Positions 1,781-52,640 are shown, numbered from the stretch's first letter. The stretch: 64,000 nucleotides of DNA from an uncultured beta proteobacterium (GCA_963775635.1 CAVZJO010000002.1:72339-136338); one strand, 5' to 3'. Notes: a model not told the origin generated them from the sequence alone. Numbers and translations are program-made.

Positions 1781-1807
1781 GCAGTCAACATGCGCGGCGC
1801 CTTGGCG

Positions 1808-2821: not shown

Positions 2822-2832
2822 GGGCGAATCCG

Positions 2833-4596: not shown

Positions 4597-4739
4597 GGCG
4601 CGCTCCTGACGACGCCGAGCGACGGTAGTTCGCCGATCTCGCGCTCCCCGAGGCCGAGTTCCGAGAGCAGCAGGCGGGTGTGCTCGCCGGCGCGCGGCGC
4701 CGGCGCATCGAGCGGGCGAGCGCCCGCATGCACGAGCGC
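4593..4739 (-). pseudogene. C-terminal remnant of a family III (CaiB/BaiF) CoA-transferase
   Basis: The translation ...PLDAPAPRAGEHTRLLLSELGLGEREIGELPSLGVV* resembles the C-terminus of the intact CoA-transferase at 60299-61477 (...PVPVLGQHTEAILRELGYDEAQIGRL...). There is no room for the missing ~350 aa before the ABC-F stop at 4781. Confidence 0.4.
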
Positions 4740-4780
4740 GGCCTGCCGGGCCGAGCGCCTTCGGAGCGGCCGTGCGGCGC

Positions 4781-6673
4781 TCATTGGATGGTCTCGAGTT
4801 CTTGCGTAAGGTCGAGCCACTGCGCCTCGAGCGCTTCAAGCCGGCGCGACAGCTCGCCGCGAAGCTTCAGGGTGTCCGCCACGATCGCCTCGTCGCCAGC
4901 GTGATAGAAGTCGGGATCGGCCAGCTTCGCGTCGAGTTCGCGCAGTTCGTCGCTGATGGTCGACAGTTCGGTTTCAACTCGCGTCAGTCGCGACTGCAGC
5001 GGGCGGCGCGCCGTGGCAATACGCTGCCGCTCGGCGGCCTCCAGTTTGCGCTGCTCGCGGCGATTGGGTGCATCCTGCTCGCCCCCGGCCTCTGCGCGGT
5101 CGCGTCGGCTTGCCAGCACCAGCGCGGCGTAATCGTCGAGGTCACCGTCGAAGGCAGCGACTCGTCCATCGTGCACCAGCCACAGCTGGTCGCAAGTCGC
5201 GCGCAGCAGGTGCCGATCGTGCGACACCAGCAGCAGGGCGCCCTCGTAGGACGACAGTGCGACCGTCAGCGCCTCGCGCGTCTCCATGTCGAGATGATTG
5301 GTCGGCTCGTCGAGCAGCAGCAGATTGGGTCGTTCCCACGCGATCAGCGCCAACGCGCAACGCGCCTTTTCGCCGCCGGACATCGGTCCCAGTAGTGAGG
5401 TCGCCATTTCACCCGAGAAACGGTACGTGCCGAGGAAGTCGCGCAACTGCTGTTCGCGCGCATCCGGCGCCAGCCGACGCAGGTGGGCTAGCGGCGTTTC
5501 GTCGGAACGCAACTGATCGAGCTGGTGCTGCGCGAAGTAGCCGATGGCCAGACCTTGTCCGCGGCGCAGTTCGCCGGCGAGCAGTTCCAGCTCGCGCGCA
5601 ATCGCCTTGACCAGCGTCGACTTGCCGGCACCGTTCACTCCAAGGATCCCGATGCGGTCTCCCGCGCGCACGGTCAGCGTGATGTCCGCAAGCACTGTGC
5701 GCGCACCGTAGCCGAGCGCCATGTCTTCGGCGTCGAGCAGCCGCTCCGGCGTACGCACCGGCTCGGGAAACTCGAAGCGCCACTCACGCCGCGCCCGCGT
5801 CGGTTCGATGGCGGTCAGCCGCTCGAGCATCTTCAGCCGGCTCTGTGCCTGGCGCGCCTTCGTCGCCTTGGCGCGGAAGCGGTCGACGAAGCTCTGCAGG
5901 TGAGCAGCCGTTCTCGCATATGCGCGCGCGGCGGCGTCCTGCTGCTTCTGCTGCTCGAGCCACGCCAGCTCGAACGCGCTGTAGTCCCCCGCGTAGCGCC
6001 GAATCGTGCCCTGGTCGACGAACCAGATCGTTTCGGCGATGCGGTCGAGGAACTCGCGATCGTGCGAGATCACGAGCACGGTCGCCGGTTGGCGCCGCAA
6101 CCAGCTCTCCAGCCAGATGACCGAGTCGAGGTCGAGATGGTTGGTCGGTTCGTCGAGCAGCAGCAGGTCGGCCGGACGAAGCAGCGCCCGCGCCAGTGCC
6201 AGGCGATTGCGCCAGCCGCCGGAAAATGTGGCCACCGGCCGCTCTCCGTCGGATGCGGCAAAGCCCAGGCCGTGCATCACAGCAGCAGCCTGCGCCTGAA
6301 TCGCGCCTTCGTTCAGGTCGGCCAGCGCAGCGTGAGCATGGGCCAGGCGCATCTCGTCGTGCGACGCCTCGGCCGCCGCCAGCTCGCATCGCGCCGAACT
6401 TAGCGCGGCGTGGCCCGCAAGCACATAAGCGAGCGCGCTCTCGGCGGCGACGTCGATGTCCTGGGCGACATGTGCGATCCGCTCAGTTCGCGGTGCCTCC
6501 TGGCTGCCAGCCTCGAGCGCGAGCTCGCCGAGGATTGCCGCGAACAGCGACGACTTGCCGCACCCGTTGGCGCCGACCAGTCCGATCCGTTCGCCGGGCC
6601 GTGCGATCAGCGAAACATTGCTGTATAGCGTGCGGGCACCGCGCGCGATCGCGACGTCGATCAGCCTTAGCAT
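4781..6673 (-). CDS. ABC-F family ATPase (Uup/YheS-like, no TM domain)
   Basis: 630 aa. Two Walker A motifs (GANGCGKSS, GVNGAGKST), two ABC signatures (FSGGWRNRLALA, MSGGEKARCALA) and a charged coiled-coil C-terminus. Confidence 0.85.
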   Translation of the reverse strand: MLRLIDVAIARGARTLYSNVSLIARPGERIGLVGANGCGKSSLFAAILGELALEAGSQEAPRTERIAHVAQDIDVAAESALAYVLAGHAALSSARCELAAAEASHDEMRLAHAHAALADLNEGAIQAQAAAVMHGLGFAASDGERPVATFSGGWRNRLALARALLRPADLLLLDEPTNHLDLDSVIWLESWLRRQPATVLVISHDREFLDRIAETIWFVDQGTIRRYAGDYSAFELAWLEQQKQQDAAARAYARTAAHLQSFVDRFRAKATKARQAQSRLKMLERLTAIEPTRARREWRFEFPEPVRTPERLLDAEDMALGYGARTVLADITLTVRAGDRIGILGVNGAGKSTLVKAIARELELLAGELRRGQGLAIGYFAQHQLDQLRSDETPLAHLRRLAPDAREQQLRDFLGTYRFSGEMATSLLGPMSGGEKARCALALIAWERPNLLLLDEPTNHLDMETREALTVALSSYEGALLLVSHDRHLLRATCDQLWLVHDGRVAAFDGDLDDYAALVLASRRDRAEAGGEQDAPNRREQRKLEAAERQRIATARRPLQSRLTRVETELSTISDELRELDAKLADPDFYHAGDEAIVADTLKLRGELSRRLEALEAQWLDLTQELETIQ

Positions 6674-6713
6674 CGTTACGCGGTGCGGGTGATTTGGTCG
6701 CCAGCGTCCAACC

Positions 6714-8839
<2,126 letters not shown>

Positions 8840-9991
8840 TTAGATGTTCAGCGTGAACTCCGAGAACGAGGCGTCGGAGCCGGCTTCCTGCCTTTCTTTC
8901 TGCTGCGGCATGCGGGCCTTGCCGGCGTTGTTGATGAACCACAGCAGGTTGTTCTGCGAATCGGCGGCGGCCAGCGCGTCCTCGCGCGTGATCTGGTCAC
9001 CCTGGATCAGCGAATACAGGCTCTGCTCGAACGAGATGCTCTCGGGGGCGAGGCTCTGCTCCATCGCCTCCTTGATGCCCTGCACGTCGCCGCGCTCGAT
9101 CAGGTCGGCGATATGCCGGGTGTTCATCAGCACCTCGACCGACGGCACACGGCCGCCGCGCTTGGAGCGCACCAGCCGCTGCGACACGATCGCTTTCATC
9201 GCCACCGACATGTCCTGGAACAACGCCTGGCGGGTTTCCGGCGGATAGAAGCTGATAACGCGGTTCAATGCATGCGAACTGTTGGTTGCGTGCAGCGTCG
9301 CGACGACCAAGTGGCCCGACATTGAGTAGGCGAGCGCCGCGCTCATCGTGTCGCGGTCGCGGATCTCGCCGATGAAGATCACGTCCGGAGCCTGGCGCAT
9401 CGCGCTGCGCAGCGCGGCCTGCAGCGTGCGGGCGTCGGAGCCGATTTCGCGCTGGTTGATGATCGACTTCTTGTTGCGGAACAGGAATTCGATCGGGTCT
9501 TCGAAGGTCAGGACGTGCCCGGTGATCAGCTCGTTGCGATGATCGATCATCGAGGCGATCGTCGTCGACTTGCCCGAACCGGCAGAACCGACGACCAGGA
9601 TCATGCCGCGACGCTCCATCACGAGGTCTTTCAGCACCTCGGGCAGATGCAGCGCGTCGAGCCTCGGGATGTCGTGCGGGATGAACCGGACGACCGCGGA
9701 AATCGAGCCGCGCTGCAGAAAGGCCGACAGCCGGAAGCTGCCGATGCCCTGCACCGGCAGGCCGATGTTCAGTTCGCGCGAATCCTCGAGTTCACGGAAA
9801 TGGGCGTCAGTCAGACGCTCGGCGAGCAGCGAGACGATCGACTGCGGCGCCAGCCGCTCCTGGTTGATCGGCACGCACACGCCGTTGATCTTGATGGTGA
9901 TCGGCGACCCCACCGACAGGAACAGGTCGGAGGCCTGTTTTTCGGCCATCAGGCCGAACAGGCGTTCGAGCGACAAGGGTGTTGCCGACAT
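8840..9991 (-). CDS. pilU: PilT/PilU-family type IV pilus retraction ATPase (PilU-like)
   Basis: Start is MSATPLSLE at ATG 9989-9991. Walker A is GSAGSGKST. The Asp and His boxes and the C-terminal tail (...ADSQNNLLWFINN...) look PilU-like. Confidence 0.75.
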   Translation of the reverse strand: MSATPLSLERLFGLMAEKQASDLFLSVGSPITIKINGVCVPINQERLAPQSIVSLLAERLTDAHFRELEDSRELNIGLPVQGIGSFRLSAFLQRGSISAVVRFIPHDIPRLDALHLPEVLKDLVMERRGMILVVGSAGSGKSTTIASMIDHRNELITGHVLTFEDPIEFLFRNKKSIINQREIGSDARTLQAALRSAMRQAPDVIFIGEIRDRDTMSAALAYSMSGHLVVATLHATNSSHALNRVISFYPPETRQALFQDMSVAMKAIVSQRLVRSKRGGRVPSVEVLMNTRHIADLIERGDVQGIKEAMEQSLAPESISFEQSLYSLIQGDQITREDALAAADSQNNLLWFINNAGKARMPQQKERQEAGSDASFSEFTLNI

Positions 9992-10164: not shown

Positions 10165-10660
10165 ACGCCCGGCGGGCGAGTGACTTTCTTTGTCTTGCCA
10201 AGGAAAGTCACCAAAGAAAGCCGCGACCGTGCGAGGCCGGCCTGCGCGCAGCGCAGGCTGCCCCTGCGCTGCGCAGCGGTCAGCGGGCGGGCCGCGAAAC
10301 TCGCCCGATCAGGCGCTGCGACAGTGCCACGGCCCTCAAACAGCGCCCGGCACCCTCCGCTGCTGCTGCGCACTGCGGCGGCGTCCCCGAGCGGACTCAC
10401 CCCGTCGCCGTGCCAGCGCCGTAAGCAACCTCGTTCAACGCGACGCCGTTGGATGCCTTCGAGGCGCCGCGCAGCGCAGCGGGCGCGGGAGTTTTTGAGG
10501 GCCTGCCTGTCTGAGCGCCCATAGGGCGCGAGTTTGCAGGCCCGCCCGCGACCGCGAGCAGCACAAGGGCAGCCCGCAGGCCGGCGCCTTCGTAGGCGCG
10601 CGTTTCCTTGGTTACTTTCTTTGGTAAGACAGAGAAAGTAACCGGCCCGCGCCGTCAGCG
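10165..10660. repeat. long imperfect palindromic intergenic element (MITE/REP-like), arms ~230 bp
   Basis: The left end GTGACTTTCTTTGTCTTGCCAAGGAAAGTCACCAAAGAAAG (10180-10220) is mirrored by CTTTCTTTGGTAAGACAGAGAAAGTAAC (10615-10642). Arm similarity continues inward (GGCCCTCAAA at 10331 versus TTTGAGGGCC at 10494) to a centre near 10416. Confidence 0.7.
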
Positions 10661-11529
10661 TCGGTAGCGAAGCGACGAATACGCAGCCCGCGCGGCGCAA
10701 TCAAGTCGCTGGCTGCGTTTAGGTCCTCAGCAACTCGTTGATGCTGGTCTTGGCCCGCGTGCGTCGCATCGACCTTCTTGACAATGACCGCGCAATACAG
10801 ATTGCACTCGCGCGACGGCAGAGAGCCGGCTACTACGACCGAGCCGGCCGGGACGCGGCCGTACAGGATCTCACCGGTCTCGCGGTTGAAGATCTTGGTG
10901 CTCTGACCGATGAACACCCCCATGCCGAGCACCGCGTTTTCTTCGACTATCACGCCCTCGACGACCTCCGAACGGGCGCCGATGAAGCAGTTGTCCTCGA
11001 TGATCGTCGGATTGGCCTGCACCGGTTCCAGCACGCCGCCGATGCCGACGCCACCGGACAAATGCACGTTCTTGCCGATCTGAGCGCAGGAGCCGACGGT
11101 GGCCCAAGTGTCGACCATTGTTCCTTCATCGACATACGCGCCGATGTTGACGTAGGAGGGCATCAGTACCACGTTCTTCGCGATATAGCTGCCACGGCGT
11201 GCAACCGCGGGCGGCACGACGCGCACGCCGGTAGCACGCATGTGCTCGGCATCCAAGTGCGAGAACTTCGTCTCGACCTTGTCGTAGAAGCCGAGCTCGC
11301 CGGCATGGATCGACCGGTTGTCGTTGAGCCGGAACGACAGCAGCACTGCCTTCTTCAGCCACTGGTTCGTGACCCACGAGCCGGTGCGTTTTTCGGCGAC
11401 CCGCGCGCGTCCCGCGTTGAGGTCAGCGATCGCCCGCTCGACCGCGTCGCGTATCGACGCGTCTGCCGTCTCGGGCGACAGGGCGGCGCGGTTCTCCCAG
11501 GCGTCGTTGATGGTCTGCTCAATTGACAT
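10612..11529 (-). CDS. dapD: 2,3,4,5-tetrahydropyridine-2,6-dicarboxylate N-succinyltransferase (3' end frame-disrupted)
   Basis: Hexapeptide-repeat transferase with a typical DapD N-terminus. After ...AVIVKKVDA the canonical tail [14 protein letters not shown] lies in the +1 frame and ends at 10719. The frame as written reads on into the palindromic repeat and stops at 10612. Confidence 0.8.
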
Positions 11530-11544: not shown

Positions 11545-12729
11545 TCAGGGTTGAAAGGAGGCGATGCGTTCGGCCGCCAGGGCGACCTCGTCTGGTGAGG
11601 CGACCAGCGCGATGCGGACGTGACCGGTACCCGGATTGCGACCGTCGACCTCGCGCGACAGGTAACTGCCGGGCAACACGGTGACGTTCTTGGCGGCGTA
11701 CAGCCGCCGCGCATACTCGGCGTCGTCGATCGGCGTGCGTGCCCACAGGTAGAACGCGGCGTCCGGAATCGCGCACTTGAGCTGCCGTGAGACGACCGGC
11801 GTGGCCTGCGCGAACTTCTGCGCGTACAGCCGTCGGTTCTCGACCACATGCGCCTCATCCTGCCACGCCGCGATACTGGCTGCCTGAACCGGGGGGCTCA
11901 TCGCGGTGCCGTGATAAGTCCGGTACAGCAGAAACTTGCGCAGCACGTCGGCATCGCCGGCGACAAACCCCGAGCGCATGCCGGGGACGTTCGAGCGCTT
12001 CGACAGGCTGGAAAACATGACGACGCGGCGGTAGCGCTCGTGGCCAAGCTGCGCCGCGGCGGCAAGCGCGCCGAGCGGTGGTGCGGACTCGTCGAAATAC
12101 ACCTCCGAATAGCACTCGTCGGAGGCGATGATGAAGTCATGGCGGTCGGCCAGTTCGAACAAACGCGCCCACTCGGCCAGTGTCATCACACGGCCGGTCG
12201 GATTGCCGGGCGAGCAGACGTAAACGAGCTGAACGCTGTTCCAGTCGGCCGCCGAGAGGCGCTCGAACTCCATTTTGTAACCGTTCTCGCGCGTGCTCGG
12301 CAGATAGACGGGCTGCGCGCCCGCGAGCAGTGCTGCGCCTTCATAGATCTGGTAGAAGGGATTGGGCGATACGACGAGTGCACGGCGAGTCCGATCGACA
12401 ACAGCCTGGGCAAACGCGAACAGCGCCTCGCGCGAACCAGCGACCGGTACTACCTCGCTCGCCGCGTCGAGCCGCGGCAGGCAGTAGCGCCGACATGCCC
12501 ACGCCGCGATCGCCTCGCGCAGGGCCGGCACCCCGGCGGTCAGCGGATAATTCGACACACTCGGCAGCGCCTTGGCATAGGCGTCCAGAATGAAGGAGGG
12601 CGTCGGATGTCTCGGCTCGCCGATCGACAAATTGATCGGCGCGAGATCGAGGGGAGGTGTCGACCCGGCCAGCAGTTGACGCAAACGTTCGAACGGGTAG
12701 GGATGCAGCCGGTCGAGGTCCGGGTTCAT
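11545..12729 (-). CDS. dapC: succinyldiaminopimelate transaminase (class I/II aminotransferase)
   Basis: Start is [16 protein letters not shown] at ATG 12727-12729. PLP-lysine motif [15 protein letters not shown]. It sits beside dapD. Confidence 0.75.
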
Positions 12730-13157
12730 GATGGCTCTACGCGCGTCGGCGCGCCCTCGACGCCCGGCCGGACCAGCTCGATAGGCGGCTGGGGCTTCCA
12801 GCCTTTCTTGCGATGCTCGGCGATCACGGTCGTAAAGAGTCCGCCGCGTACATACCACCGCGCAGTCAGCCGGACAAAACGTGGTGCGAGCGCCTTGACC
12901 AGATCGTCGAGGATCCGGTTGGTCACCGCCTCGTGAAATGCGCCTTCATTGCGAAACGACCACACGTAGAGCTTGAGCGACTTGAGTTCAACGTTGCGTT
13001 TGTCCGGGACGTAGTCCAGCAGCAGGGTGGCGAAGTCGGGCTGCCCGGTCAGCGGACATAGGCAGGTGAACTCCGGGATCTCGATGTGGACGAGGTAGTC
13101 CCGCTGCCGCGCCGGATTGGCGAACGTCTCGAGCGTCTTGCTGGGGCGGGTGGCCAT
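12726..13157 (-). CDS. queF: NADPH-dependent 7-cyano-7-deazaguanine reductase, unimodular (type I)
   Basis: Start is [12 protein letters not shown] at ATG 13155-13157. Catalytic Cys motif [12 protein letters not shown] and QueF motif [17 protein letters not shown] overlap with the dapC start. Confidence 0.8.
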
Positions 13158-13336
13158 GGTCGCGGCTAGGGCCTGATGGTCGGTGCGCGTAGGCGATTGA
13201 CAATGCGGCCGCGGCGAGGAAATGTGCGCTGTTATTATACGAATGCAATCATTCATCCCCTCGCGCATCGTCGAGCCGTCGGCGGCCCGATCCGCGTCCG
13301 GGGCGTTTCCCCACCAGTTTCCCGTCCCATTACAAC

Positions 13337-16865: not shown

Positions 16866-20077
<3,212 letters not shown>

Positions 20078-20079
<2 letters not shown>

Positions 20080-35407: not shown

Positions 35408-36480
35408 ATGCCCGGCGGACTGTCACTGTCTGAGCTGACAGCCGCCATCGCTGAACGTACCGGCGGCCGGCTGCAGGCAACCATCCGCGGGGACGCTGCG
35501 CGGCGTGTGACTGCGGTTGCGCCGCTCACCGCTGCCGCAGCGAGCGATCTCACCTTCCTTGCCAATCCGCGTTACCGCCGCGACGCGGCAGCGACACGCG
35601 CCGGTGCGCTCGTCTTAGGCCCGGCGGACGCCCAGGCGCTCGCAGACAGCGCGGCGCCCGGTGCGTCGCTCGTGATCGTCGAGCCGCCGTATGCGTGGTT
35701 CGCCCTCGCGGCGGACCTGCTGCACCCGGCGAGGCCCGCGCAAGCCGGCATTGCACCTACTGCCTGCGTGGATGCCAGCGCGCGCATCGATGCGACCGCC
35801 TGCATTGGCGCCGGCGCGGTGATCGGCGCGGGTGCACACGTCGACGCCGGGGCCGTAATCGACGCCGGTGCGGTGCTGGGAGCTGGTGCGCGGATTGGCC
35901 AGAGACGCATCTATATCCGCGCGCGGTCGTGCTCGATGACTGCGTGATGGGAGAGCGCTGCATCGTGCACAGCGGAGCGGTGATCGGCGCCGACGGCTTC
36001 GGCTTTGCGCCTCTCGATGGCCGCTGGTTAAAGATTCCACAAGTCGGGCGGGTGGTCATTGGGGATGATGTCGAAATCGGCGCCAACACCACGATCGATC
36101 GAGGCACGATGGGTGACACCGTGATCGAATCCGGTGTCAAGCTCGACAACCAGATCCAGATCGGGCACAACTGCTTCGTGGGTGCGAACACCGTGATCGC
36201 CGGGTGCGTCGGCGTTGCCGGCAGTGCGCACATCGGCCGCAATTGCATGATCGGAGGTGCTGCCGGTATCGCCGGCCACTTATCGATCGCCGATGGATGC
36301 GTGATCGGACCGGCCACGGTCGTCTCGGGCTCGATCGATGTGCCCGGGCATTACACGGGATTCTTCCCAATCATGAAGAATCGGGACTTTGAAAAGTCGG
36401 CGGCGATCGTCCGCCAGCTCGACGATCTGCGGAAGCGGGTGCGAGAACTCGAAGCGCAGCGCAGGGGAGACAAGAAATGA
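35408..36480 (+). pseudogene. lpxD: UDP-3-O-acylglucosamine N-acyltransferase, frame-disrupted (-1 nt near 35897-35903)
   Basis: The N-part (ORF 35408..35947) and C-part (ORF 35695..36480, from ...[35 protein letters not shown]) are collinear LpxD halves in different frames. The span is 1073 nt, which is 3n-1. Confidence 0.75.
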
Positions 36481-44531: not shown

Positions 44532-45476
44532 ATGCCTTTTCTTCCGTTCGACGGCGTTTCCATCATCGCGATCATCGTGCTGGTGGTGGCGGTCACCTTT
44601 GTCATCAAGGCCGTCAAGGTCGTGCCGCAGCAGAACGCGTGGGTTGTCGAACGACTCGGCAAGTTCCACGCGGTGCTGCAGCCCGGGCTGAACATCGTGA
44701 TTCCCTTCGTCGATCGGCTCGCCTACAAGCACAGCCTGAAGGAGGTTCCGCTCGACACGCCCAGCCAGGTCTGCATCACCAAGGACAACACTCAGTTGCA
44801 GGTCGACGGCGTCCTGTATTTCCAGGTGACCGATCCGCAGCGCGCTTCCTACGGCGCCAGCAACTACATCCTGGCGATCACGCAACTCGCCCAGACGACG
44901 CTGCGCTCGGTGATCGGCAAGCTCGAACTCGACAAGACGTTCGAGGAGCGAGACTTCATCAACCACAGCGTCGTCAGCGCGATCGACGAAGCGGCGATGA
45001 ACTGGGGCGTCAAGGTGCTGCGCTACGAGATCAAGGACATCACGCCGCCGGCGGCGATTCTGCATGCGATGCAGGCACAGATTACCGCCGAGCGGGAAAA
45101 GCGCGCGCTGATCGCGTCGTCCGAGGGACGCAAGCAGGAGCAGATCAACATCGCAACCGGTGCGCGCGAAGCGGAGATCGCGCGGTCGGAGGGTGAGAAG
45201 CAGGCGCAGATCAACATTGCGCAGGGCGAGGCGGGCGCAGTGCTCGCCGTCGCCGAAGCCACCGCGCGCGCAATCCAGATGGTTGCAGAAACCATCCGCC
45301 AGCCGGGAGGTATGGAAGCAGTGAATCTGCGCGTGGCCGACCGCTACGTCGACGCGTTCGGCAACCTGGCAAAGACCAACAACACGCTGATCCTTCCGGC
45401 CAACCTGGCCGATGTCGGCGGCCTGATCGCCGCGGCGATGTCGGTGGTCAAGAGCCAGCGGGTCCAGCAGGCCTAA
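44532..45476 (+). CDS. SPFH/band-7 (stomatin/paraslipin-like) protein
   Basis: 314 aa. N-terminal TM helix, SPFH core (VVPQQNAWVVERLGKF...), then an Ala/Glu-rich coiled coil. AGGAG RBS. Confidence 0.85.
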   Translation: MPFLPFDGVSIIAIIVLVVAVTFVIKAVKVVPQQNAWVVERLGKFHAVLQPGLNIVIPFVDRLAYKHSLKEVPLDTPSQVCITKDNTQLQVDGVLYFQVTDPQRASYGASNYILAITQLAQTTLRSVIGKLELDKTFEERDFINHSVVSAIDEAAMNWGVKVLRYEIKDITPPAAILHAMQAQITAEREKRALIASSEGRKQEQINIATGAREAEIARSEGEKQAQINIAQGEAGAVLAVAEATARAIQMVAETIRQPGGMEAVNLRVADRYVDAFGNLAKTNNTLILPANLADVGGLIAAAMSVVKSQRVQQA

Positions 45477-45485
45477 GGAATGAGC

Positions 45486-46960
45486 CTATAGCTGATAGTC
45501 CATCGCCAGCCGTGATTGCAGGTCGCGGGCGATCCGGAAAGCCTCCTTCAACGATAGCCGATCCAGCTTGTTGAGCTTGTCCGGGTCAATCCGGTTCGGT
45601 TCGCCGTTGGAAGCAAGCGAATCGAGGCCAGCCTGGTGTGTGAGCCGGATGCGCTGGATCAGGTAAAACGCCGCCAGCATCGACTGCGTTTCATCGTTCG
45701 GCAGCGCGCCGATGGAGCCGGCACCGCGCAGCCGGTCTGCGGTGTTTGTCTGCGGCAGGGCGTAGGCGAGCGAATACACGCGTGCCGCATCGACGAAGGG
45801 GCGCACGCCGTACATCTTCAGGTTGATCGTGCCCGGCGTAGTTCGGCACGTCTTCGGTGATGAAGTCGCGCCAACGGGCAAGGGGCGGTTTTGCCTGGAG
45901 CGCGTTTTCCGCCATCAGGCGCAGGAAGTTCGGCCGCTTGCGTGTGACGTCGAGAAACCAGCGGCGCAGATCCGACGCCAATCGCGCGTCACCGTACAAC
46001 GCACGGAAGTCGAAGCATATCGCTGCATCGAGCAGAGCCTTCGGTTCCGAGTCGGAGAGCCAACCTTCGAGCTTGGATTTCCACTCCGCCATCGACAGGC
46101 ACAGCTCCGGGTTTGAAGCCATTACGTTGCCCTTGCAGAGCGGAAAACCGCAGGCATCGAGCGCCTCATTGACCTCACGTGCAAACGGCAAAAGGTGCTC
46201 GCGCACGCGGGCCGGCACCGGTGTCCTCATGAGCAACAAATACGATCCCGTTGTCCTGGTCAGTGGCAAAAGTCTGCTCGAGTCGCCCCTCGCTGCCGAA
46301 GGCAAGCCAGCACCAGCCGATACGATCCCAACTATGACGCCTGCGCACGAGCTCGATGATTCGCTCGCAGATGCGGTCGTTCAAGACTGACACGAACAGC
46401 GTCAACTGCTCGGCGCCGACGCCCTGTTCGAGCAGGATCCGCGTCAACTGTCGCACCCGCTCGGCCAGGCCGGCCAGCGTCGAGACGTCACGTGCCAGTC
46501 GGATTTCCATCGTCAGCTCGCCCAGGCCGAGGCGTTGCAGCGAAAACAGATCCCGTTCCGAGATCACGCCGACAAGCTGTTGGTCGCGCTCGACGAGCAC
46601 GTGACGGATACCGTGCTTGATCATCAACAATGCAGCTTCATACGAGGGCGTATGGTCGGGCAGCGACAGCGGGTCCTTCGACATGACATCGGTCACCGGC
46701 GCGTCGAGTTGCTGCTGCAATGTCGCTCGCACCAGGTCGCGTTCGGTGAAGACTCCGGTCGGGCGCTTGCGGTCGTCGACAATGACGATCGCGCCGACTT
46801 GCTCGTCGTGCATCCGCTGCACAGCGCTGCGAACCGTGTCCCATTCGCTGCAAACCAGAGGTGCGCCGCGCAGAAGACTCCGCAGGGGCTGCGCCAGCGT
46901 CTGCTGCTCACCCGCCAGGCGGTCTGGCTTGCCGATCGGAGTCGGAGAGGGATCGGCCAC
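45486..46960 (-). pseudogene. CBS-pair + DUF294 putative nucleotidyltransferase, split over three frames (two +1 breaks)
   Basis: ORFs 46175..46960 (CBS pair, then the NTase motif AFGSEGRLEQTFATDQDN), 45691..46305 (CGFPLCKGNVMASNPE...) and 45486..45881 (DUF294_C-like ...INLKMYGVRPFVDAARVY...) are collinear. The span is 1475 nt, which is 3n+2. Confidence 0.65.
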
Positions 46961-46974
46961 AGTGGCGTTTCGTT

Positions 46975-49119
46975 TCAGTATTCGAGGCGCGCAAGGTAGC
47001 TCGCGCGAGATGCATCGAGCGCCTGCGCCAGCGTGACAATGCCGCGTTCGGCGAGCAGCGGCAGCAGGCGCAGGAAGACTTCGGCGGTCACCAGTGCATC
47101 GCCGAGCGCGGTGTGCCGACCGATCACGCGCACGCCGACACGCTCGGCGATCGCATCCAGATCGTGGTTGTCCAGGCTCGGGTGCACCACCGCCGACAGC
47201 AGCAGCGTATCGAGCACCGGCTGGCCGAAGTGCACACCGGCGACACCCTCCTTCAGTTCGAGAAACCGCATATCGAAGGCGGCGTTGTGCGCCACGAGCA
47301 CGGTGTCCTCGCAGAAGCGGTAGAAGCGCGGCAGCACCTGTTCGATCGGCGGCTCATTGAGCAGCTGACGCGCGTCGATTCCGTGCACGGCAGTCGATTC
47401 GCGGCTGATCGAGCGGCGCGGGTTGACCAGCTGCTCGAAGACCTCTTGCTTCAGCAAACGGCCGTTGACGATCCGAACGGCGCCCAGCGAGATGACTTCG
47501 TCGCCCGCCGACGGCTCCAACCCGGTCGTTTCGGTATCGAATACGGTGTAAGAGAGTTCCGCGAGCTTGCGTTCGGCAAGTGCGCCGGCCGTATCGAGTC
47601 GATCGAACAGGTCGAAGTCGTAGAACTCCGGCCGACTTTCAGCGGTGCTTGTCCTGTACGCCAGCGCAGCGGGGGCTTCGCCGCGCGGCAGCAGGAAATG
47701 GAAGCGGGAGGTCTGGCGGATTTTGTCGACCTGCAGCCATGCCTCGGCGCCGTGGCGCTCGAGCACGGCGCGCAGCGACAGCGGCGTTTCTTCGGTTCCT
47801 ACGCGCATCGGTTCGCTTTCCCACAGCGAAAGCGCATCGCTGCTGACGATGGCGCCTGTCCAGATCAGGTCCACCTCGGCGAAGCCGCCACTGCTGCCGG
47901 CGCGCAGCCGAAAACCGTAGATCGTGTAGTCGCCGGCGAGCCTTGCGGCCAGAAAGGTCATCGCCTGCACGATCGCAAAGCTGTCAACGCGCACCCACAG
48001 GTTGGCGTCGGCATCCTCAACTGAGACCGGAAGCTGCAGCGCTTCGCTGATGTGCCGCTGCACCACGGCCAGCAGGTCGACCGCGCGCATGTCCTCCAGC
48101 GTCAGGCTGCCCTTCAGTGCGTCAGCATATTCGCGCAGCGCCGTGTTCAGGCGCTCGGTCAGCACTCGCGACTCGGCGACGGCGATGTCGACGAACTGGG
48201 TGCGCTGGCCGACCGGCATGTCCGGGTATGCCGCGATGTTCTCGGCCGCTGCGCGCAGGTTGGCGGCCGGCGCCCGCATGCCGGTCGCGAGCGACTGCAA
48301 CAGGCGCAGGCTCTGAGCTTCGCGGCCGACCAGGCCGCTGACGTCATCGAAGGTGAATACCATGCCAGCGACTCGCCGCTCCGTCCCGAGAAACGGTACC
48401 ACCAGCACGCGCAGCAGGGCGCCATTGGCGACCGACACCACGAAGCGCGCATGCGGACGATCGACGTGATCGAGCTGCTGCTGGATCACGTCCAATGCAT
48501 GCGCAACCTGATTGCGATCGAGCAACGCGAGCACCGATCGCCCGAGGCCGAGCGGTTTGTAATCGCCGCGGGCCGCGCTGCCTGCAGGTGGCGCCAGCAG
48601 CGCGGCGGCGCGCGGGTTGTACAGCAGAATGCGCCCGTCGGCGTTGCAGACCAGCACACCCTGCGAAAGCTCCGACATCAGCGCCGCAAAGCGGTCACGT
48701 TCCTCCTCGACACGCGCCCGGGTCTCGGCGCTGCGCTGATCGAGATCGTGTTCGATGCGATGGTAGGCGTCGGCCAGCTGGTTGATGGCGGAGGCGACAT
48801 CGGCCAATTCCGGCGCATCGGCTGTTGCAACTCGAAAGCCGCGTTCGGCAGCCAGCAGGCTGCGCGCCTGTTCGGCGAGCTGGCGTGCCGCGTGCGAATA
48901 ACGCCAAAACAGCCAGTGCCCCAACATCCCGGCGACCGCCAACAGGATCATCGTTCCGAACGCGAGCAGCGGCGCCGTCTCGCTGACCAGTGCGCTCAGG
49001 CTTGCCCGCAGTTCAGGGCCGGCTGCCAGATGGACCAGCAGCGCCCCCGCCGCCAGCACCACGAGCACGCCAACGCACGAGCTCAGTATCCAGATCGCGA
49101 CGCCGCGCCATCGTTTCAT
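46975..49119 (-). CDS. membrane HAMP-PAS-degenerate histidine-kinase-like sensor fused to a DnaQ-type DEDDh 3'-5' exonuclease
   Basis: Start is MKRWRGVAIW at ATG 49117-49119, in an ATGA overlap with the receiver stop. Two TM helices are followed by a PAS-like region. The DHp-like helix has Thr where His is expected (LATGMRAPAANLR). The C-terminus has Exo I FDTETTGL, Exo II VAHNAAFDMRFL and Exo III HTALGDAL. Confidence 0.7.
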   Translation of the reverse strand: MKRWRGVAIWILSSCVGVLVVLAAGALLVHLAAGPELRASLSALVSETAPLLAFGTMILLAVAGMLGHWLFWRYSHAARQLAEQARSLLAAERGFRVATADAPELADVASAINQLADAYHRIEHDLDQRSAETRARVEEERDRFAALMSELSQGVLVCNADGRILLYNPRAAALLAPPAGSAARGDYKPLGLGRSVLALLDRNQVAHALDVIQQQLDHVDRPHARFVVSVANGALLRVLVVPFLGTERRVAGMVFTFDDVSGLVGREAQSLRLLQSLATGMRAPAANLRAAAENIAAYPDMPVGQRTQFVDIAVAESRVLTERLNTALREYADALKGSLTLEDMRAVDLLAVVQRHISEALQLPVSVEDADANLWVRVDSFAIVQAMTFLAARLAGDYTIYGFRLRAGSSGGFAEVDLIWTGAIVSSDALSLWESEPMRVGTEETPLSLRAVLERHGAEAWLQVDKIRQTSRFHFLLPRGEAPAALAYRTSTAESRPEFYDFDLFDRLDTAGALAERKLAELSYTVFDTETTGLEPSAGDEVISLGAVRIVNGRLLKQEVFEQLVNPRRSISRESTAVHGIDARQLLNEPPIEQVLPRFYRFCEDTVLVAHNAAFDMRFLELKEGVAGVHFGQPVLDTLLLSAVVHPSLDNHDLDAIAERVGVRVIGRHTALGDALVTAEVFLRLLPLLAERGIVTLAQALDASRASYLARLEY

Positions 49120-49512
49120 TGCGTCGGAGCGCTGCCTGGTTCGAACAGCCGGTTGATCGTGGCCACCAGCTCCTGCGTGGAAAACGGCTTCGTGATGTAA
49201 AGATCGGCGCCGAGCGACAAGCCCTTGTTGACCTCGGCTTCGGTACCTTTGGCCGACAGCATCACGATCTTGATCTGAGCGAATTCGGGCCGTTCCCGCA
49301 TTCTCTGGCAGACCTCGAATCCGCTCTTGATGGGCATCATGACGTCCATCAGGACCAGGTCCGGCCGGTATGCCTCGACCTGCTCGAGCGCCTCGGCGCC
49401 GTTGGATCGCCAGGCGTACGTCATAGCCGCTCCGCTTCAGCAGGAATTCGAGCGCCGTAACGATGTTCGGCTCATCATCGACGATCAGCACTTTGCGCGT
49501 TGCTTCACTCAT
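49116..49512 (-). pseudogene. single-domain CheY-like response regulator, frame-disrupted (+1 nt near 49407)
   Basis: MSEATRKVLIVDDEPNIVTALEFLLKRSGYDVRLA (frame of 49512) continues as SNGAEALEQVEAYRPDLVLMDVMMP...MLSAKG...ITKPF (ORF 49116..49424). The span is 397 nt, which is 3n+1. Confidence 0.7.
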
Positions 49513-49581
49513 GACTGCCTCGCGTTGTCTCGTGTCGACACAGTGCTGCCACCGAGCGCTTGCCTCGCAACCGGCCGGGCG

Positions 49582-52335
49582 TCAGGCGGGTACGAGGGTC
49601 GATGCCGGGGCCAGCGGTAGTGTGAAGGAAAAGCAAGCGCCGGCGCCCGCTTCGCTTTCGACCCAGATGCGACCGCCGAAGTACTCGACGATCTGGCGGC
49701 TGATGTTCAGGCCCAGGCCCGTGCCCGGCGGCTTGGCGACCAGCGCATCTCCGGCCTGCCAGAACTTGTCGAAGATGAAGCCCTGGTCCTCGCGGCGCAC
49801 TCCGGGTCCATTGTCGCGGACGTCGATGCGCAACTCGCCGTCGAGCACACGCAGTGCCACTTCGACCCTGCCGCGGCCCTCGGGACTGAACTTCAATGCG
49901 TTCGACAGCAAGTTCATCAGCACCTGGATCAAACGGTCGACGTCGACCTCGACGGGCGGCGTGTACTCCGGCATGCGCGCCTCGAGCTGGACACCCTTTT
50001 CCTTGAACACCTGGCTCATCCTGGCCAGGCTGTCGGCCACGACGTCGCGCACGTCGACCCGCGTCATCTGCCATTCAGCACGGCCGGATGCGATCTTCGC
50101 GAGGTCAAGCACCTCGTTGATCAGCCGGGTCAGCCGCTCGGTCTCGCGGGTGATGACGCCGAGAAACTCCATGCGTTGGTCCAAGTCCACACTCGGATTG
50201 GCCAGCAGGATCTCGGAGAACGCGCGGATCGACGTCAGCGGCGTGCGCAACTCGTGCGTCACGGTCGAGATGAAGTCGTCCTTCAGGCGGTCGAGTTCCT
50301 TCAGGCGTTCATTGGCAGCTCGCAGTTCGGCGGTCGCTGCTTCCAGCTCGCGCGACTTCTGCTCCAGGCGATGGCTGTAGACCACCACCTGCGACGCTTC
50401 GTCCAGTATCGCGGTGACTTCTTCGAGCGTAAGCGCCTCTTCCTTGACCGCGGACGCGATCATGATGCGGGCCGAAGCCGAGCCGATCGCGCCGGCCAGC
50501 TGCGTTTCGACGTAATTCACAAACTCTGCGTCGGCCGTCAGTTCGTCGTTGGGCCACGACAGGCCGCGCGCGCGCGCGTAATCGGCAAAGACGGTGTCGG
50601 CAGCGGAGCTGCCGATGAACCGTGACAGCACCGCATACAACTCGCGTACCGATGCCGTGCCGCGCCAGAAGCGCGCGCCCCCCGCTTCGTGCTGGAAGGC
50701 GTCGACGAACATGCTCGCCTGCCGCCGCTCGGCTGCCGATTGCGTGCCGGCCAGTGAAACGCCAACGTACAGTCCGATGTTGGCGATCATGCTCCAGATC
50801 ATTGCGTGCGTGATCTGATCCAGACCCGTCAGTCCGAACAGGGCGAGTGGCCTGAGCAGTTCGATGCCGAACGGGCCGTGCTCCAGAAAAGAGATCGGCA
50901 ACCAGCCGGAGCGCGCCAGCGCCGGCAGCAGCAGCGTGTAGAGCCAAACGAGAAACCCCGCCACCAGTCCCGCGAGCGCGCCGCGCCGTGTCGCGCCCTT
51001 CCAGAAGATGCCTCCGAGCACGGCCGGGGCGAACTGCGCGACGGCCGCGAACGAAATCAGCCCGATCGACACCAGCGCATAGGCCTCGCCGGCCAGGCGG
51101 AAGTACAGATACCCGAGCAGCAGCACCATTACGATCGCGCCGCGCCGGATGCCGAGTATCAGGCCGGTCAGATCCGGCCGCGCGGCCAGCCGCAGCCGCT
51201 GCATGCGCAGCAGCACCGGCATCAGCAGGTCATTGCAGACCATCGTCGACAATGCAATCGTTTCGACAATAACCATTCCGGTGGCAGCCGACAGTCCGCC
51301 GATGAACACCAGCAGCGCCAGCATTTCCTGATGCTCGACCATCGGCAACGTAAGCACATAGGTATCGGCGTCGACATTCCCGCCCGGAAAATGCAGCCGG
51401 CCGCCGAATGCGATGGGCAGCACGAAGATGTTGATCGCAAGCATGTAGACGGGGAACACCCAGATCGCCTTCTTCAGGTGTCGTTCGTCGACGTTTTCGA
51501 TCACCGCGACCTGGAACTGGCGAGGCAGGAACATGATCGCCAGCATCGACAGGATGGTCAGCCAAACCCAGCTCGCATAACCGCCGGCAAACACCTCCAA
51601 TGGTGTCAGCAACTGGGCGATCTTCGGTACTGCAGCCGCACGATCGAACAGGTCGCCGAATCCGTCGTAGATCCCCCAAGTCACGAAGGCGCCAACCGCA
51701 AGAAACGCCAGCAGCTTGACCAGCGATTCGAACGCAATCGCCGCCACCATCCCCGGATGGTGTTCGGCGGCGTCCAGATGACGGGTGCCGAAGGCGATTG
51801 TGAACAGAGCCAGGATCAGCGCGACCCACAAGGCAGTGTCCTGCAGCAGCGGCGCAGCTCCCAGCTTGGCCGGCATGACGATCTCCGGATACTGCATGAT
51901 GATCGTGAAACTGTTCGAGACTGCCTTCAACTGCAGCGAGATGTACGGCACGATGCCGATCACCGCGATGATCGTGACGACGCCGCCGAGCAGCGCGCTC
52001 TTGCCGTAACGCGATGCCACGAAGTCGGCCAGCGACGTGATGCGGTTCTGCTTCGAAATGCGCAGGATCTTGCGCAGGACCAGCCACCACAGGGCGATCA
52101 TCAGCGTCGGCCCGATGTAGATCGGCAGGAACCCGACGCCGTCGCTCGCGGCGCGGCCGACGCTGCCGTAAAACGTCCACGCTGTCGCATAAACGGCCAG
52201 CGACAGACTGTAGATGTAGGGACTGGCTATGACCGGCCGGCCGCTGTCAGCGCGCTGGTCGGCGTAATAGGCGATGGCAAAGAGCAGCCCGAGGTAGGCG
52301 AACGAGGTGGCGACGATGACGCTGCCCTGGAGCAT
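49582..52335 (-). CDS. sensor histidine kinase with N-terminal sodium:solute symporter (SLC5) domain and STAC-like linker (CbrA/CrbS-type)
   Basis: 917 aa. About 500 aa of polytopic SSS-like domain, then a linker, an intact H-box STVTHELRTPLTSIRAF, and HATPase N/G boxes (LLSNALKF, DNGPGV, GTGLGLNI). There is no receiver domain. Confidence 0.8.
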   Translation of the reverse strand: MLQGSVIVATSFAYLGLLFAIAYYADQRADSGRPVIASPYIYSLSLAVYATAWTFYGSVGRAASDGVGFLPIYIGPTLMIALWWLVLRKILRISKQNRITSLADFVASRYGKSALLGGVVTIIAVIGIVPYISLQLKAVSNSFTIIMQYPEIVMPAKLGAAPLLQDTALWVALILALFTIAFGTRHLDAAEHHPGMVAAIAFESLVKLLAFLAVGAFVTWGIYDGFGDLFDRAAAVPKIAQLLTPLEVFAGGYASWVWLTILSMLAIMFLPRQFQVAVIENVDERHLKKAIWVFPVYMLAINIFVLPIAFGGRLHFPGGNVDADTYVLTLPMVEHQEMLALLVFIGGLSAATGMVIVETIALSTMVCNDLLMPVLLRMQRLRLAARPDLTGLILGIRRGAIVMVLLLGYLYFRLAGEAYALVSIGLISFAAVAQFAPAVLGGIFWKGATRRGALAGLVAGFLVWLYTLLLPALARSGWLPISFLEHGPFGIELLRPLALFGLTGLDQITHAMIWSMIANIGLYVGVSLAGTQSAAERRQASMFVDAFQHEAGGARFWRGTASVRELYAVLSRFIGSSAADTVFADYARARGLSWPNDELTADAEFVNYVETQLAGAIGSASARIMIASAVKEEALTLEEVTAILDEASQVVVYSHRLEQKSRELEAATAELRAANERLKELDRLKDDFISTVTHELRTPLTSIRAFSEILLANPSVDLDQRMEFLGVITRETERLTRLINEVLDLAKIASGRAEWQMTRVDVRDVVADSLARMSQVFKEKGVQLEARMPEYTPPVEVDVDRLIQVLMNLLSNALKFSPEGRGRVEVALRVLDGELRIDVRDNGPGVRREDQGFIFDKFWQAGDALVAKPPGTGLGLNISRQIVEYFGGRIWVESEAGAGACFSFTLPLAPASTLVPA

Positions 52336-52353
52336 GGGGCGCTAGGACCGGTT

Positions 52354-52551
52354 CTAGTCTTCGCGTTCAATCGCGTGCGCCATCAGGACGATCAGCACTG
52401 TCCAGGCGCCAAAGATCCATGCGTACAGTGCCGGAATGCCGAAGAAGGTGTCAGGGCGGTTGAACAGCGCCAGGATCGGGTAGTTGAACAGCAGACACCC
52501 CAGCATGCATAGAGCCACTAGGCGGGCGGTTCGACGTCCCGGCTTCAGCAT
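52354..52551 (-). CDS. small two-TM membrane protein (DUF3311-like) preceding the SLC5-kinase
   Basis: ATG 52549-52551 lies 6 nt after AAGGAG. 65 aa with two hydrophobic helices (LVALCMLGCLLFNYPILALF; IPALYAWIFGAWTVLIVLMA). 18 nt upstream of the kinase gene. Confidence 0.55.
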   Translation of the reverse strand: MLKPGRRTARLVALCMLGCLLFNYPILALFNRPDTFFGIPALYAWIFGAWTVLIVLMAHAIERED

Positions 52552-52640
52552 GATCGCTCCTTGGCGGGCGTCCGACGTCCCCGCGCGAGTACGGTAAGTG
52601 GCGCTGCTCGGCCCTGTCAAACCCTTTGCGGACACGACGA

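Follow-up and report, generated by a model that had tools for sequence, protein, structure and literature searches.

A transporter-like sensor kinase and a lone receiver in one operon with a sensor-exonuclease and a DUF294 nucleotidyltransferase: a possible non-transcriptional two-component pathway

What does a two-component system control when its operon encodes no DNA-binding protein? This question is raised by five genes on the minus strand of a 64,000-nucleotide stretch of DNA from an uncultured beta proteobacterium (GCA_963775635.1, CAVZJO010000002.1:72339-136338), which is called the window here. The genes, their coordinates and their spacings had been proposed from the sequence alone and were reproduced by ORF calling. 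The operon extends over 45486-52551 with recomputed spacings of 18, 69, -4 (an ATGA overlap) and 14 nt, and its features are, from upstream to downstream:

52552-52640, minus strand: spacer of 89 nt separating smpB from the small first gene, with a perfect -35 box (TTGACA, about 52615-52620) and a weak -10 box (TACCGT)
52354-52551, minus strand: two-helix membrane peptide of 65 aa (ORF with the SD sequence AAGGAG)
49582-52335, minus strand: SLC5-STAC-HisKA-HATPase sensor kinase ("transceptor") of 917 aa (Pfam, match to 10ed)
49116-49512, minus strand: single-domain receiver, 131 aa after frame repair (Pfam Response_reg)
46975-49119, minus strand: TM-HAMP-PAS-pseudokinase-DEDDh sensor-exonuclease of 714 aa (Pfam, profiles, AF2, Foldseek)
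45486-46960, minus strand: nucleotidyltransferase with a CBS pair, DUF294 and DUF294_C; its relatives have 491 aa (Pfam after frame repair)

The -35/-10 pair in the spacer is a possible, putative operon promoter; a consensus promoter scan of the spacer gave no site at the scan's threshold. The domains assigned in the sequence-only reading were all confirmed, by Pfam or by structure and profile matches, including a PAS domain that stayed below the Pfam threshold, but its five continuous genes were not, because the receiver and DUF294 genes are frame-broken here and the shifts had been passed over. A DNA-binding domain was found in none of the five products (Pfam, NCBIfam), as had been noticed before. 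The further claim, by which the pathway has no outputs besides exonuclease and nucleotidyltransferase, stands only in so far as the operon has no DNA-binding domain; their exclusivity is not established, and an unlinked DNA-binding regulator could be served as well.

The sensor kinase consists of an SLC5-STAC part (about aa 8-627, nt 50455-52314), a HisKA domain (aa 685-751, Pfam 9e-19), and a HATPase_c domain (aa 798-909, 2.3e-29). Although Pfam SSF did not match at E<0.01, residues 8-627 align to residues 11-589 of PDB 10ed_A, a 606-aa SLC5-STAC kinase construct, with an E-value of 2.7e-72, and the kinase core matches HK853-type cores (E 1e-43). The H-box STVTHELRTPL with the phospho-acceptor histidine is intact, and the gene stays in one frame throughout when compared to the related locus L001. 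By sequence, the SLC5-STAC N-terminus together with functional-type HisKA and HATPase_c domains assigns the protein to the SLC5/STAC kinases (CbrA/CrbS/RpuS), but a cognate DNA-binding regulator as in that family (CbrB, CrbR, or RpuR type) is not encoded nearby; the 131-aa receiver is the only response regulator of the operon and its conserved neighbourhood. Pfam detected neither a PAS domain nor a C-terminal Response_reg domain, and the protein ends right after HATPase_c at residue 909, so that it is not a CrbS-type hybrid kinase with a C-terminal receiver. The 65-aa peptide encoded before it has two hydrophobic helices, its SD sequence lies 7 nt before the ATG, and it does not match any Pfam or NCBIfam family. 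A small-peptide gene is found by tblastn directly upstream of the kinase gene in 45 of 57 loci. By position and topology the peptide may be the counterpart of CbrX, a small peptide hairpin bound to the SLC5 domain of CbrA (PMC13022988, PMC6591292).

The repaired receiver matches Response_reg over residues 8-119 of 131 (1.7e-32) and is a receiver only, like CheY and DivK. It contains the acidic pair (IVDDEP), the phospho-acceptor aspartate (LMDVMMP), the serine (MLSAKG), and the lysine (ITKPF), and its stop codon overlaps the ATG of the exonuclease gene by 4 nt (ATGA) here and in 44 of 73 loci. The two genes are thus translationally coupled in most loci.

The exonuclease protein is composed of a TM hairpin and HAMP-like helices (aa 3-149), a PAS domain (about 150-262, nt 48334-48672), a DHp/CA-like region (about 266-480, nt 47680-48324), and a DEDDh domain (about 520-700, nt 47020-47562). 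In Pfam, RNase_T is found with 2.2e-34 and PAS_4 weakly, while the HAMP assignment derives only from the fold and from profile similarity to VicK/WalK. Profile searches matched the PolC exonuclease 2p1j (5e-40), VicK, ThkA, and DivL. The AF2 model has a pLDDT of 70-88 over residues 1-480, and the top Foldseek matches of this part (WalK, VicK, YF1, ThkA, and HK853; the WalK model with E 1e-18) show the TM-HAMP-PAS-DHp-CA fold of a sensor kinase. However, Thr279 lies opposite the position of the phospho-acceptor histidine (hhalign), the N-box asparagine and the G1/G2 glycines are missing, and the histidine column is occupied by Thr, Ala, Asp, or Glu, and by His in none, across the beta- and alphaproteobacterial members. 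Having lost the phospho-acceptor histidine along with the N, G1, and G2 boxes, the kinase region within residues 1-480 is a pseudokinase, and the earlier description as a degenerate kinase is borne out by full-length kinases as best structural matches. The nuclease, in turn, has retained its catalytic residues. It shows the Exo I (D-x-E), Exo II (D), and Exo III (H-x4-D) motifs of DnaQ/PolC-like DEDDh enzymes, whose residues D528, E530, D616, H669, and D674 do not vary among 38 sequences. Its nearest relatives in the profile search are the DNA-proofreading PolC/epsilon exonucleases.

The repaired DUF294 protein comprises two CBS domains, DUF294 (PF03445, 7.7e-43), and DUF294_C (PF10335, 2.8e-38), and the Pol-beta motif G-S...D-x-D (G223, S224, D235, D237) is invariant in 45 sequences, as expected of a DUF294 nucleotidyltransferase. 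A cNMP_binding domain was not found by Pfam in the 491-aa protein, which therefore is not of the PP_0354/PA3233 type; the homologues from Paracoccus and Skermanella do have one. In the AF2 model of a 95% orthologue (pLDDT 81), Foldseek finds the CBS pair to resemble AMP-binding CBS proteins, including AcuB in fold, and the best long matches of the remaining part are the adenylyl-removing and adenylylating GlnE domains (1v4a and 3k7d). With a TM of about 0.47 and an E-value of about 3e-7 this match is modest, and it is one of fold only, as Pfam and NCBIfam gave no GlnE or GlnD family match. From this model the protein is predicted to be a CBS-gated GlnE-like nucleotidyltransferase, which lends support to the nucleotidylation of a target suggested earlier.

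Relatives of the TM-HAMP-PAS-pseudokinase-DEDDh exonuclease are encoded in at least 524 species-representative genomes. Among the 57 loci with enough flanking sequence, the receiver gene immediately precedes the exonuclease gene in 54, the SLC5-STAC kinase is adjacent in 51, the DUF294 gene in 48, and all three in 45. An adjacent DUF294 gene is absent in six of the 57, and of the whole module three Accumulibacter loci encode nothing but the exonuclease protein. In L035, L081, and Paracoccus L090 the receiver and exonuclease genes stay together although no kinase gene adjoins them. The operon architecture is therefore conserved in many Betaproteobacteria, its gene order is seen again in dozens of genomes at the species level, more than expected by chance, and the condensed operon is not a one-off. 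Because the flanks of the module differ between lineages, the module moves as a unit. Among 80 loci, AcsA (acetyl-CoA synthetase) is encoded immediately before the module and in its orientation in 33, a VC_2705-type carboxylate symporter is adjacent in 42, and no DNA-binding regulator recurs beside the module. The gene order in Paracoccus is acs-DUF485-actP-DUF294-REC-exonuclease.

How could these parts work together? We regard the operon as a conserved non-transcriptional two-component pathway for the assimilation of short-chain, acetate-type carboxylates, and would give this reading a probability of roughly one half. The SLC5-STAC kinase, probably in complex with the CbrX-like hairpin peptide, would sense the availability or flux of a carboxylate and autophosphorylate. 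Judged from the adjacency of the genes alone, it would then phosphorylate the single-domain receiver, which would dock on the DHp-like helices of the dead kinase module, as DivK~P does on DivL. Docking would switch the C-terminal DEDDh 3'-5' exonuclease domain, and the TM, HAMP, and PAS parts may add a second input. Exonuclease and nucleotidyltransferase might act on one nucleotide-bearing molecule as remover and adder. The preferred candidate would be an acetate-pathway protein in nucleotidylylated form (Acs or a carboxylate symporter), while the CBS pair would read AMP/ATP; the alternative is an RNA 3' end. To our knowledge, however, no DEDDh exonuclease removes a nucleotide from a protein, and the domain here is nearest to proofreading enzymes. 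We also count against the pathway that the Pol-beta nucleotidyltransferase fold is common to enzymes acting on RNA and small molecules, that neither acs nor a carboxylate symporter is located beside the operon in this window, that the DUF294 gene is not adjacent in the six loci mentioned and the exonuclease protein is on its own in the three from Accumulibacter, and that the Pseudomonas phenotypes are mild. Mutants of the homologous DUF294/exonuclease pair in Pseudomonas are impaired on pyruvate and propionate, which speaks for the carboxylate link, but only mildly (PMC9927547; bioRxiv 10.64898/2026.09.07.749794).

The strongest competing explanation, which we consider improbable but the least so of the alternatives, is that the real output is an unlinked DNA-binding regulator of the CrbR/LuxR or CbrB type, that the receiver is a phosphate sink or modulator, and that the exonuclease fusion and the DUF294 protein are merely co-expressed and not controlled by phosphorylation. 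The characterised SLC5-STAC kinases CbrA, CrbS, and RpuS all work via transcription factors, and single-domain receivers often serve as phosphate sinks in two-component systems. The DUF294/exonuclease pair of Pseudomonas is itself under transcriptional control, its operon being the most strongly CrbS/R (MxtR/ErdR)-dependent target (PMC9927547; bioRxiv 10.64898/2026.09.07.749794; PMC5715377). However, the 80 loci offer no conserved neighbouring regulator for this role. Against it also speak the translational coupling of receiver and exonuclease genes in most loci, their staying together where no kinase gene adjoins them, and the kinase-like docking module without phospho-acceptor that the exonuclease has kept across alpha- and betaproteobacteria.

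Less probable still is that the wiring is as we propose but the pair acts on nucleic acid instead of modifying a protein, either in RNA 3'-end tailing and trimming, as known from the CCA-adding enzyme and RNase T, or in the decay of specific carbon-metabolism mRNAs. The nuclease is a canonical DnaQ/PolC-type DEDDh enzyme with complete catalytic residues, and RNA-tailing enzymes occur among the Pol-beta-fold nucleotidyltransferases. That the nuclease degrades mRNA has also been speculated for Pseudomonas (PMC9927547). In contrast, the best structural matches of the DUF294 protein are the protein-modifying GlnE domains and not RNA nucleotidyltransferases, Pfam and NCBIfam revealed no RNA-binding domain in the products, and the locus does not contain any Rfam element.

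Similarly unlikely is that the pathway is being lost in this genome, with real insertions and a partly pseudogenised locus in which the kinase and the exonuclease protein are still intact. The frame breaks in question are:

49406-49408, minus strand: receiver frameshift, one extra base at about 49407 (GCG-A-TCC here, GCG-GCC in L001)
46215-46221, minus strand: first DUF294 frameshift, extra T at about 46217 (CACCGG-T-GCC; alignment to L083 and L001)
45832-45840, minus strand: second DUF294 frameshift, extra G at about 45837 (AACTAC-G-CCGGGC; alignment to L083 and L001, tblastn frame change)

Thus, the N-terminus (49512-49408) and C-terminus (49406-49119) of the receiver are in different frames according to tblastn and the DNA alignment to L001, and it takes three frames to read the DUF294 gene. 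A decay would explain some features better than uniform error. The three frame-breaking insertions are within 1.87 kb, all outside homopolymer runs, and over the 14.7 kb that a reference locus spans the shifts are confined to the receiver and DUF294 genes, with none in the kinase gene, the exonuclease gene, or the eight flanking genes. On the other hand, the repaired frames are without stops or further decay and have 95% aa identity to P0121, and the coding signal (GC3) is unbroken across the shifts. The intact receiver and DUF294 genes of relatives are 87-96% identical, with the receiver complete at 131 aa in L001 and L085-L087, and the L083 contig with 96.2% nucleotide identity is intact. 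In other parts of the window, an APH kinase gene and lpxD, a gene essential to most Gram-negative species, are likewise frame-broken, pointing to an assembly or sequence error. Because close relatives are intact and lpxD and the APH kinase gene are broken too, sequence error is the likelier origin of the three 1-nt insertions. An anti-phage defence system was also considered and rejected, as PADLOC gave only generic DEDDh and receiver domain matches and none for DUF294, and the genes next to the module are metabolic.

In the preferred reading, a transporter-like kinase and a small receiver appear to control a proofreading-type exonuclease and a GlnE-like nucleotidyltransferase and not a transcription factor. 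The closest known system is CrbS/CrbR of Vibrio and Pseudomonas with its target PP_0354/PP_0353 (PA3233/PA3232, Pflu5625), in which an SLC5-STAC kinase is also functionally linked to a CBS-DUF294 protein and an RNase_T-type exonuclease in an acs and acetate/carboxylate symporter setting. The P. aeruginosa homologues adjoin actP/yjcH (PMC9927547). That a DnaQ-like nuclease and a cNMP/CBS/DUF294 gene are associated with actP and CrbS/MxtR is thus documented (PMC9927547; bioRxiv 10.64898/2026.09.07.749794; PMC5715377), and the literature to 2026 agrees that the pair has no established biochemical function. While the pair was known as a CrbS/R target in Pseudomonas, no published description of the condensed five-gene operon type was found. 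CrbS, a hybrid kinase, carries a receiver itself and acts through the LuxR-type transcription factor CrbR, whereas the kinase here is non-hybrid with no transcription factor in the operon; the CrbS/R-system nuclease is small and stand-alone, whereas the receiver-coupled exonuclease has acquired a TM-HAMP-PAS-pseudokinase input module; and the DUF294 protein of that system carries the cNMP-binding domain absent here. CbrA differs from the kinase in having a PAS domain and histidine as its ligand, and in signalling to CbrB, a sigma-54 activator. It shares with it the gene for a two-helix peptide directly before the kinase gene, but cbrX overlaps cbrA where the gap here is 18 nt, and in view of the missing family match of the 65-aa protein the likeness is one of position and topology. 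DivL and DivK of Caulobacter likewise pair a kinase-fold protein without phospho-acceptor histidine with a single-domain receiver, and DivL reads DivK~P (PMC5361649). However, DivL has a tyrosine at the histidine position, retains its ATP-binding domain, and controls another kinase (CckA), whereas here Thr279 and the lost N, G1, and G2 boxes belong to a module fused to the enzyme that docking would control. GlnE and GlnD resemble the DUF294 protein in combining a Pol-beta nucleotidyltransferase with a helical C-terminal domain and a regulatory small-molecule-binding module upstream, but do not share a sequence family with it, and their removal activity resides in a second nucleotidyltransferase-like or an HD domain while the constant partner of DUF294 is a DEDDh exonuclease. 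Finally, in the AcuABC system of Bacillus a CBS adenylate/energy sensor beside acs also takes part in the post-translational control of acetyl-CoA synthetase, AcuB sensing energy charge and controlling AcsA modification (PMC13121692); that control operates by lysine acetylation and deacetylation, with no nucleotidyltransferase, exonuclease, or two-component system.

The five genes form a genuine and widely conserved version of SLC5-STAC/acetate-switch signalling for which no earlier description was found in the literature covered, and their output is predicted to be enzymatic and not transcriptional. In gene order the operon comprises:

52354-52551, minus strand: 65-aa protein with two hydrophobic helices (ORF; SD AAGGAG 7 nt before ATG)
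49582-52335, minus strand: 917-aa kinase (ORF list, translation)
49116-49512, minus strand: receiver, frame-broken (ORF list, translation)
46975-49119, minus strand: 714-aa exonuclease fusion (ORF list, translation)
45486-46960, minus strand: CBS-DUF294 gene, frame-broken (ORF list, translation)

The sequence-only reading had placed five minus-strand genes at 45486-52551, and the ORFs and translations bear this out, including the exact spacings of 18, 69, -4 (ATGA), and 14 nt. Its domain calls also stood, with Pfam giving HisKA and HATPase_c; Response_reg; RNase_T; and two CBS, DUF294, and DUF294_C domains, while the PAS domain of the exonuclease fusion is sub-threshold in Pfam. The kinase did not pass the threshold of the Pfam SSF model; its residues 8-627 align with a solved 606-aa SLC5-STAC kinase construct (PDB 10ed, E 2.7e-72), presumably the CbrA construct of PMC13022988. 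The Pfam/NCBIfam search returned no family match for the 65-aa protein. In a cryo-EM structure the SLC5 domain is bound by CbrX, a hairpin peptide (about 58 aa) whose gene lies upstream of cbrA (PMC13022988). As had been proposed, domain searches found a DNA-binding domain in none of the five products. It would be conceivable that the true output is an unlinked DNA-binding regulator, which we consider unlikely. Promoter and terminator scans gave no signal beyond shuffled expectation, and a single transcript is therefore presumed from the spacing only. Only 9 nt separate the ends of the DUF294 gene and of Band_7, which runs convergently (45476-45486), and no terminator-like hairpin was detected between these ends. 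No RNA family was detected anywhere in the window with Rfam. The PADLOC matches are to generic domains only, and a defence role was thus rejected.

A search of species-representative genomes with the sensor part alone revealed at least 524 relatives. The best 80 of these are all betaproteobacterial and comprise Burkholderiaceae MAGs, Noviherbaspirillum, Rhodoferax, Thauera, Azonexus/Dechloromonas, Zoogloea, Sulfuritalea, Denitromonas, and Accumulibacter, of which Thauera, Azonexus/Dechloromonas, and Zoogloea are important in wastewater and denitrification. In all 57 loci with sufficient flanking sequence, exonuclease and sensor are parts of one fusion protein; the receiver is found directly upstream in 54, the SLC5-STAC kinase upstream in 51, and the small peptide was detected in at least 45. 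A DUF294 gene is adjacent in 48 of the 57 loci (37 downstream, 12 upstream), and receiver, kinase, and DUF294 gene occur together in 45. The receiver stop codon and the start of the sensor frame overlap by 4 nt in 44 of 73 loci. The window's own flanking genes (SmpB, Band_7, PpsA/PSRP) are conserved in close relatives only, which indicates that the module travels as a unit; for the same reason a functional link to ppsA was rejected. Clustering of the remaining neighbours showed, in 33 of the 80 loci, a same-strand acetate-CoA ligase gene immediately upstream, and in 42 an adjacent sodium/solute symporter of the VC_2705 family. An annotated replicon of Paracoccus sp. AK26 (L090, pAK1, 1341-9926) encodes, in this order, acs, DUF485, actP, cNMP-CBS-DUF294, a 64-aa ORF, a receiver, and a 662-aa sensor-exonuclease homologue; receiver and exonuclease genes overlap, and there is no SLC5 kinase within the cluster. 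Thus, the receiver-exonuclease pair reaches the Alphaproteobacteria and can occur without an SLC5 kinase beside it.

Several loci deviate from the common arrangement. In Rhodocyclaceae loci the exonuclease gene is followed by two DUF294 paralogues, of which the first is without the CBS pair (in locus L020 at 10268-11254 and 11744-13162), and the two paralogues are also found in loci L021, L024, L028, L030, L031, L040, L042, L046, L048, L060, L062, L077, and L078. A second, diverged sensor-exonuclease is located near the first in locus L007 (15136-17523), where it has its own receiver, and in locus L035 (33-3556), where a DUF294 gene follows. In three Accumulibacter loci (L050, L051, L066) the sensor-exonuclease stands alone, with no receiver, SLC5 kinase, or DUF294 gene adjacent. 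Skermanella mucosa pSM-1 (L089, 3390-8012) encodes, in this order, DUF4212, a sodium:solute symporter, cNMP-CBS-DUF294, and, at the expected position of the exonuclease, a 194-aa hypothetical protein without Pfam hit.

The sequence-only reading did not notice that the receiver and the DUF294 gene are frame-broken in this sequence. The reading of the receiver begins in the frame of an 845-aa ORF and then moves to a different one, and the DUF294 gene is spread across three frames. The sequence is imperfect at three positions, namely single extra bases at about 49407, about 46217-46220, and about 45837-45840 compared to an 87%-identical reference locus (L001). Over 3.8 kb of a 96.2%-identical contig (L083), the same two DUF294 insertions are the sole indels that are not multiples of three. 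All close relatives have an intact receiver of 131 aa and an intact DUF294 protein of 491 aa. A codon-usage Viterbi pass across the window flagged further same-strand frame switches. Two frames are needed to read lpxD, an essential gene in most Gram-negative bacteria (35408-36480, plus strand, shift near 35922), and only the joined translation matches TIGR01853 from end to end (354 bits). A gene for an APH-family phosphotransferase likewise changes frame (2833-4102, minus strand, shift near 3320), with positions 2-145 and 142-220 of the Pfam APH profile matched by different ORFs in different frames. Because an essential gene is broken too, the evidence argues for sequence or assembly errors. 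Real inactivation of the receiver and DUF294 genes, meaning that the locus is pseudogenised in this genome, would fit the observation that within the 14.7 kb covered by L001 (38900-53600) all three insertions are confined to these two genes, none of them inside a homopolymer run, and that eight flanking genes, like the kinase and exonuclease genes, keep to a single frame. The broken lpxD speaks against this, and we regard inactivation as distinctly improbable, with the unexplained clustering as the remaining caveat to the error reading. A 97%-identical metagenome contig (L084, 4-2074) has the exonuclease gene split into ORFs of 536 aa and 160 aa; the cluster has broken frames in other public assemblies as well. 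A membrane-anchored gene in the zipA position (16866-18035, plus strand), upstream of ligA (18046-20079), also has an apparent three-frame reading, the frame changing near 17170 and near 17754; neither Pfam nor NCBIfam profiles confirm its identity.

A profile of 38 homologues of the sensor-exonuclease matches the PolC-type exonuclease 2p1j (5e-40) and Pol III epsilon, and, more weakly, in its N-terminal part VicK (HAMP/PAS), ThkA (PAS-DHp-CA), and the pseudokinase DivL. The AlphaFold2 model is confident over residues 1-480 and contains a TM hairpin, long HAMP-like helices, a PAS fold, a helical hairpin, and an alpha/beta domain; its best Foldseek matches are full-length histidine kinases (a WalK model with E 1e-18, then VicK, YF1, ThkA, ZraS, and HK853). 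When the protein is aligned by profile with the operon's own kinase, Thr279 falls in the column of the phospho-acceptor His, and the N, G1, and G2 boxes are lost. None of the beta- or alphaproteobacterial members has a His in this column. Given the replaced His and the lost boxes, the kinase-like region is, judged by sequence, a pseudokinase. The nuclease domain is probably active, because the DEDDh residues D528, E530, D616, H669, and D674 are invariant. Despite its PolC exonuclease match (E 5e-40), the exonuclease domain (46975-47562) was modelled poorly by AlphaFold2 (pLDDT <50), probably an artefact of a shallow alignment, and its fold is thus assigned from sequence. For DUF294, a PDB sequence search found CBS matches only and no solved structure of the domain itself. 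In the model of a 95%-identical orthologue (pLDDT 81), the CBS pair matches AMP-binding CBS proteins and AcuB, and the best long structural matches of the remaining ~390 residues are the adenylyl-removing and adenylylating domains of the glutamine synthetase adenylyltransferase GlnE (E about 3e-7, TM about 0.47). The nucleotidyltransferase (NTase) motif G-S...D-x-D is invariant.

We infer that the operon encodes a non-transcriptional phosphorelay. The SLC5-STAC kinase would sense a carboxylate and phosphorylate the lone receiver, and the phosphorylated receiver would dock on the pseudokinase module, for which DivK/DivL is a precedent (PMC5361649), and switch the fused exonuclease. Exonuclease and CBS-gated GlnE-like NTase may counteract each other on a single substrate that carries a nucleotide and is connected with Acs or carboxylate uptake. 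Observed directly are the domain architectures, the status of the catalytic residues, the coupling, and the gene neighbourhoods; ligand, phosphotransfer, docking, and substrate are inferences. It could be possible that the DnaQ-like domain is no nucleic-acid enzyme but an eraser, switched through phosphorylated receiver and pseudokinase, of a protein nucleotidylylation mark that DUF294 writes on acetyl-CoA synthetase or a carboxylate symporter; we give this a chance of roughly one in eight. If true, the acetate switch would be governed by a reversible protein modification cycle of a new type, and two-component systems would gain a novel form of output. With the same wiring the substrate might be an RNA 3' end instead of a protein, which seems quite doubtful. 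The phosphorelay would be a further clear example of two-component signalling in which a pseudokinase passes the signal on to an enzyme.

No paper describing an SLC5-kinase/receiver/pseudokinase-exonuclease/DUF294 operon was found in the literature covered, which excludes most subscription journals and the original STAC paper. The assignment of V. cholerae VC2703/VC2704 as exonuclease and DUF294 protein was not borne out; literature matches to "DUF294" that actually concern DUF2946 were set aside, as was a Cupriavidus PHB two-component system as irrelevant. In P. putida/alloputida ErdR directly targets the operon of PP_0354 (cNMP-2xCBS-NTase) and PP_0353 (RNase_T exonuclease), whose deletion mutants are only moderately impaired, on pyruvate and propionate, and whose function is given as unknown (PMC9927547; bioRxiv 10.64898/2026.09.07.749794). 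[quoted passage not shown] Among the CrbS/R targets in Pseudomonas, the DUF294/exonuclease pair shows the strongest dependence (PMC9927547; bioRxiv 10.64898/2026.09.07.749794; PMC5715377), and it has been without functional assignment for almost a decade. The DUF294 proteins of Pseudomonas, Paracoccus, and Skermanella contain a cNMP-binding domain, which is absent here. The betaproteobacterial and Paracoccus exonucleases carry their own kinase-like input module and have a dedicated, translationally coupled receiver. Therefore, the pair should be switchable in vitro with a phospho-mimic, which would offer a direct experimental handle on its activity and substrate.
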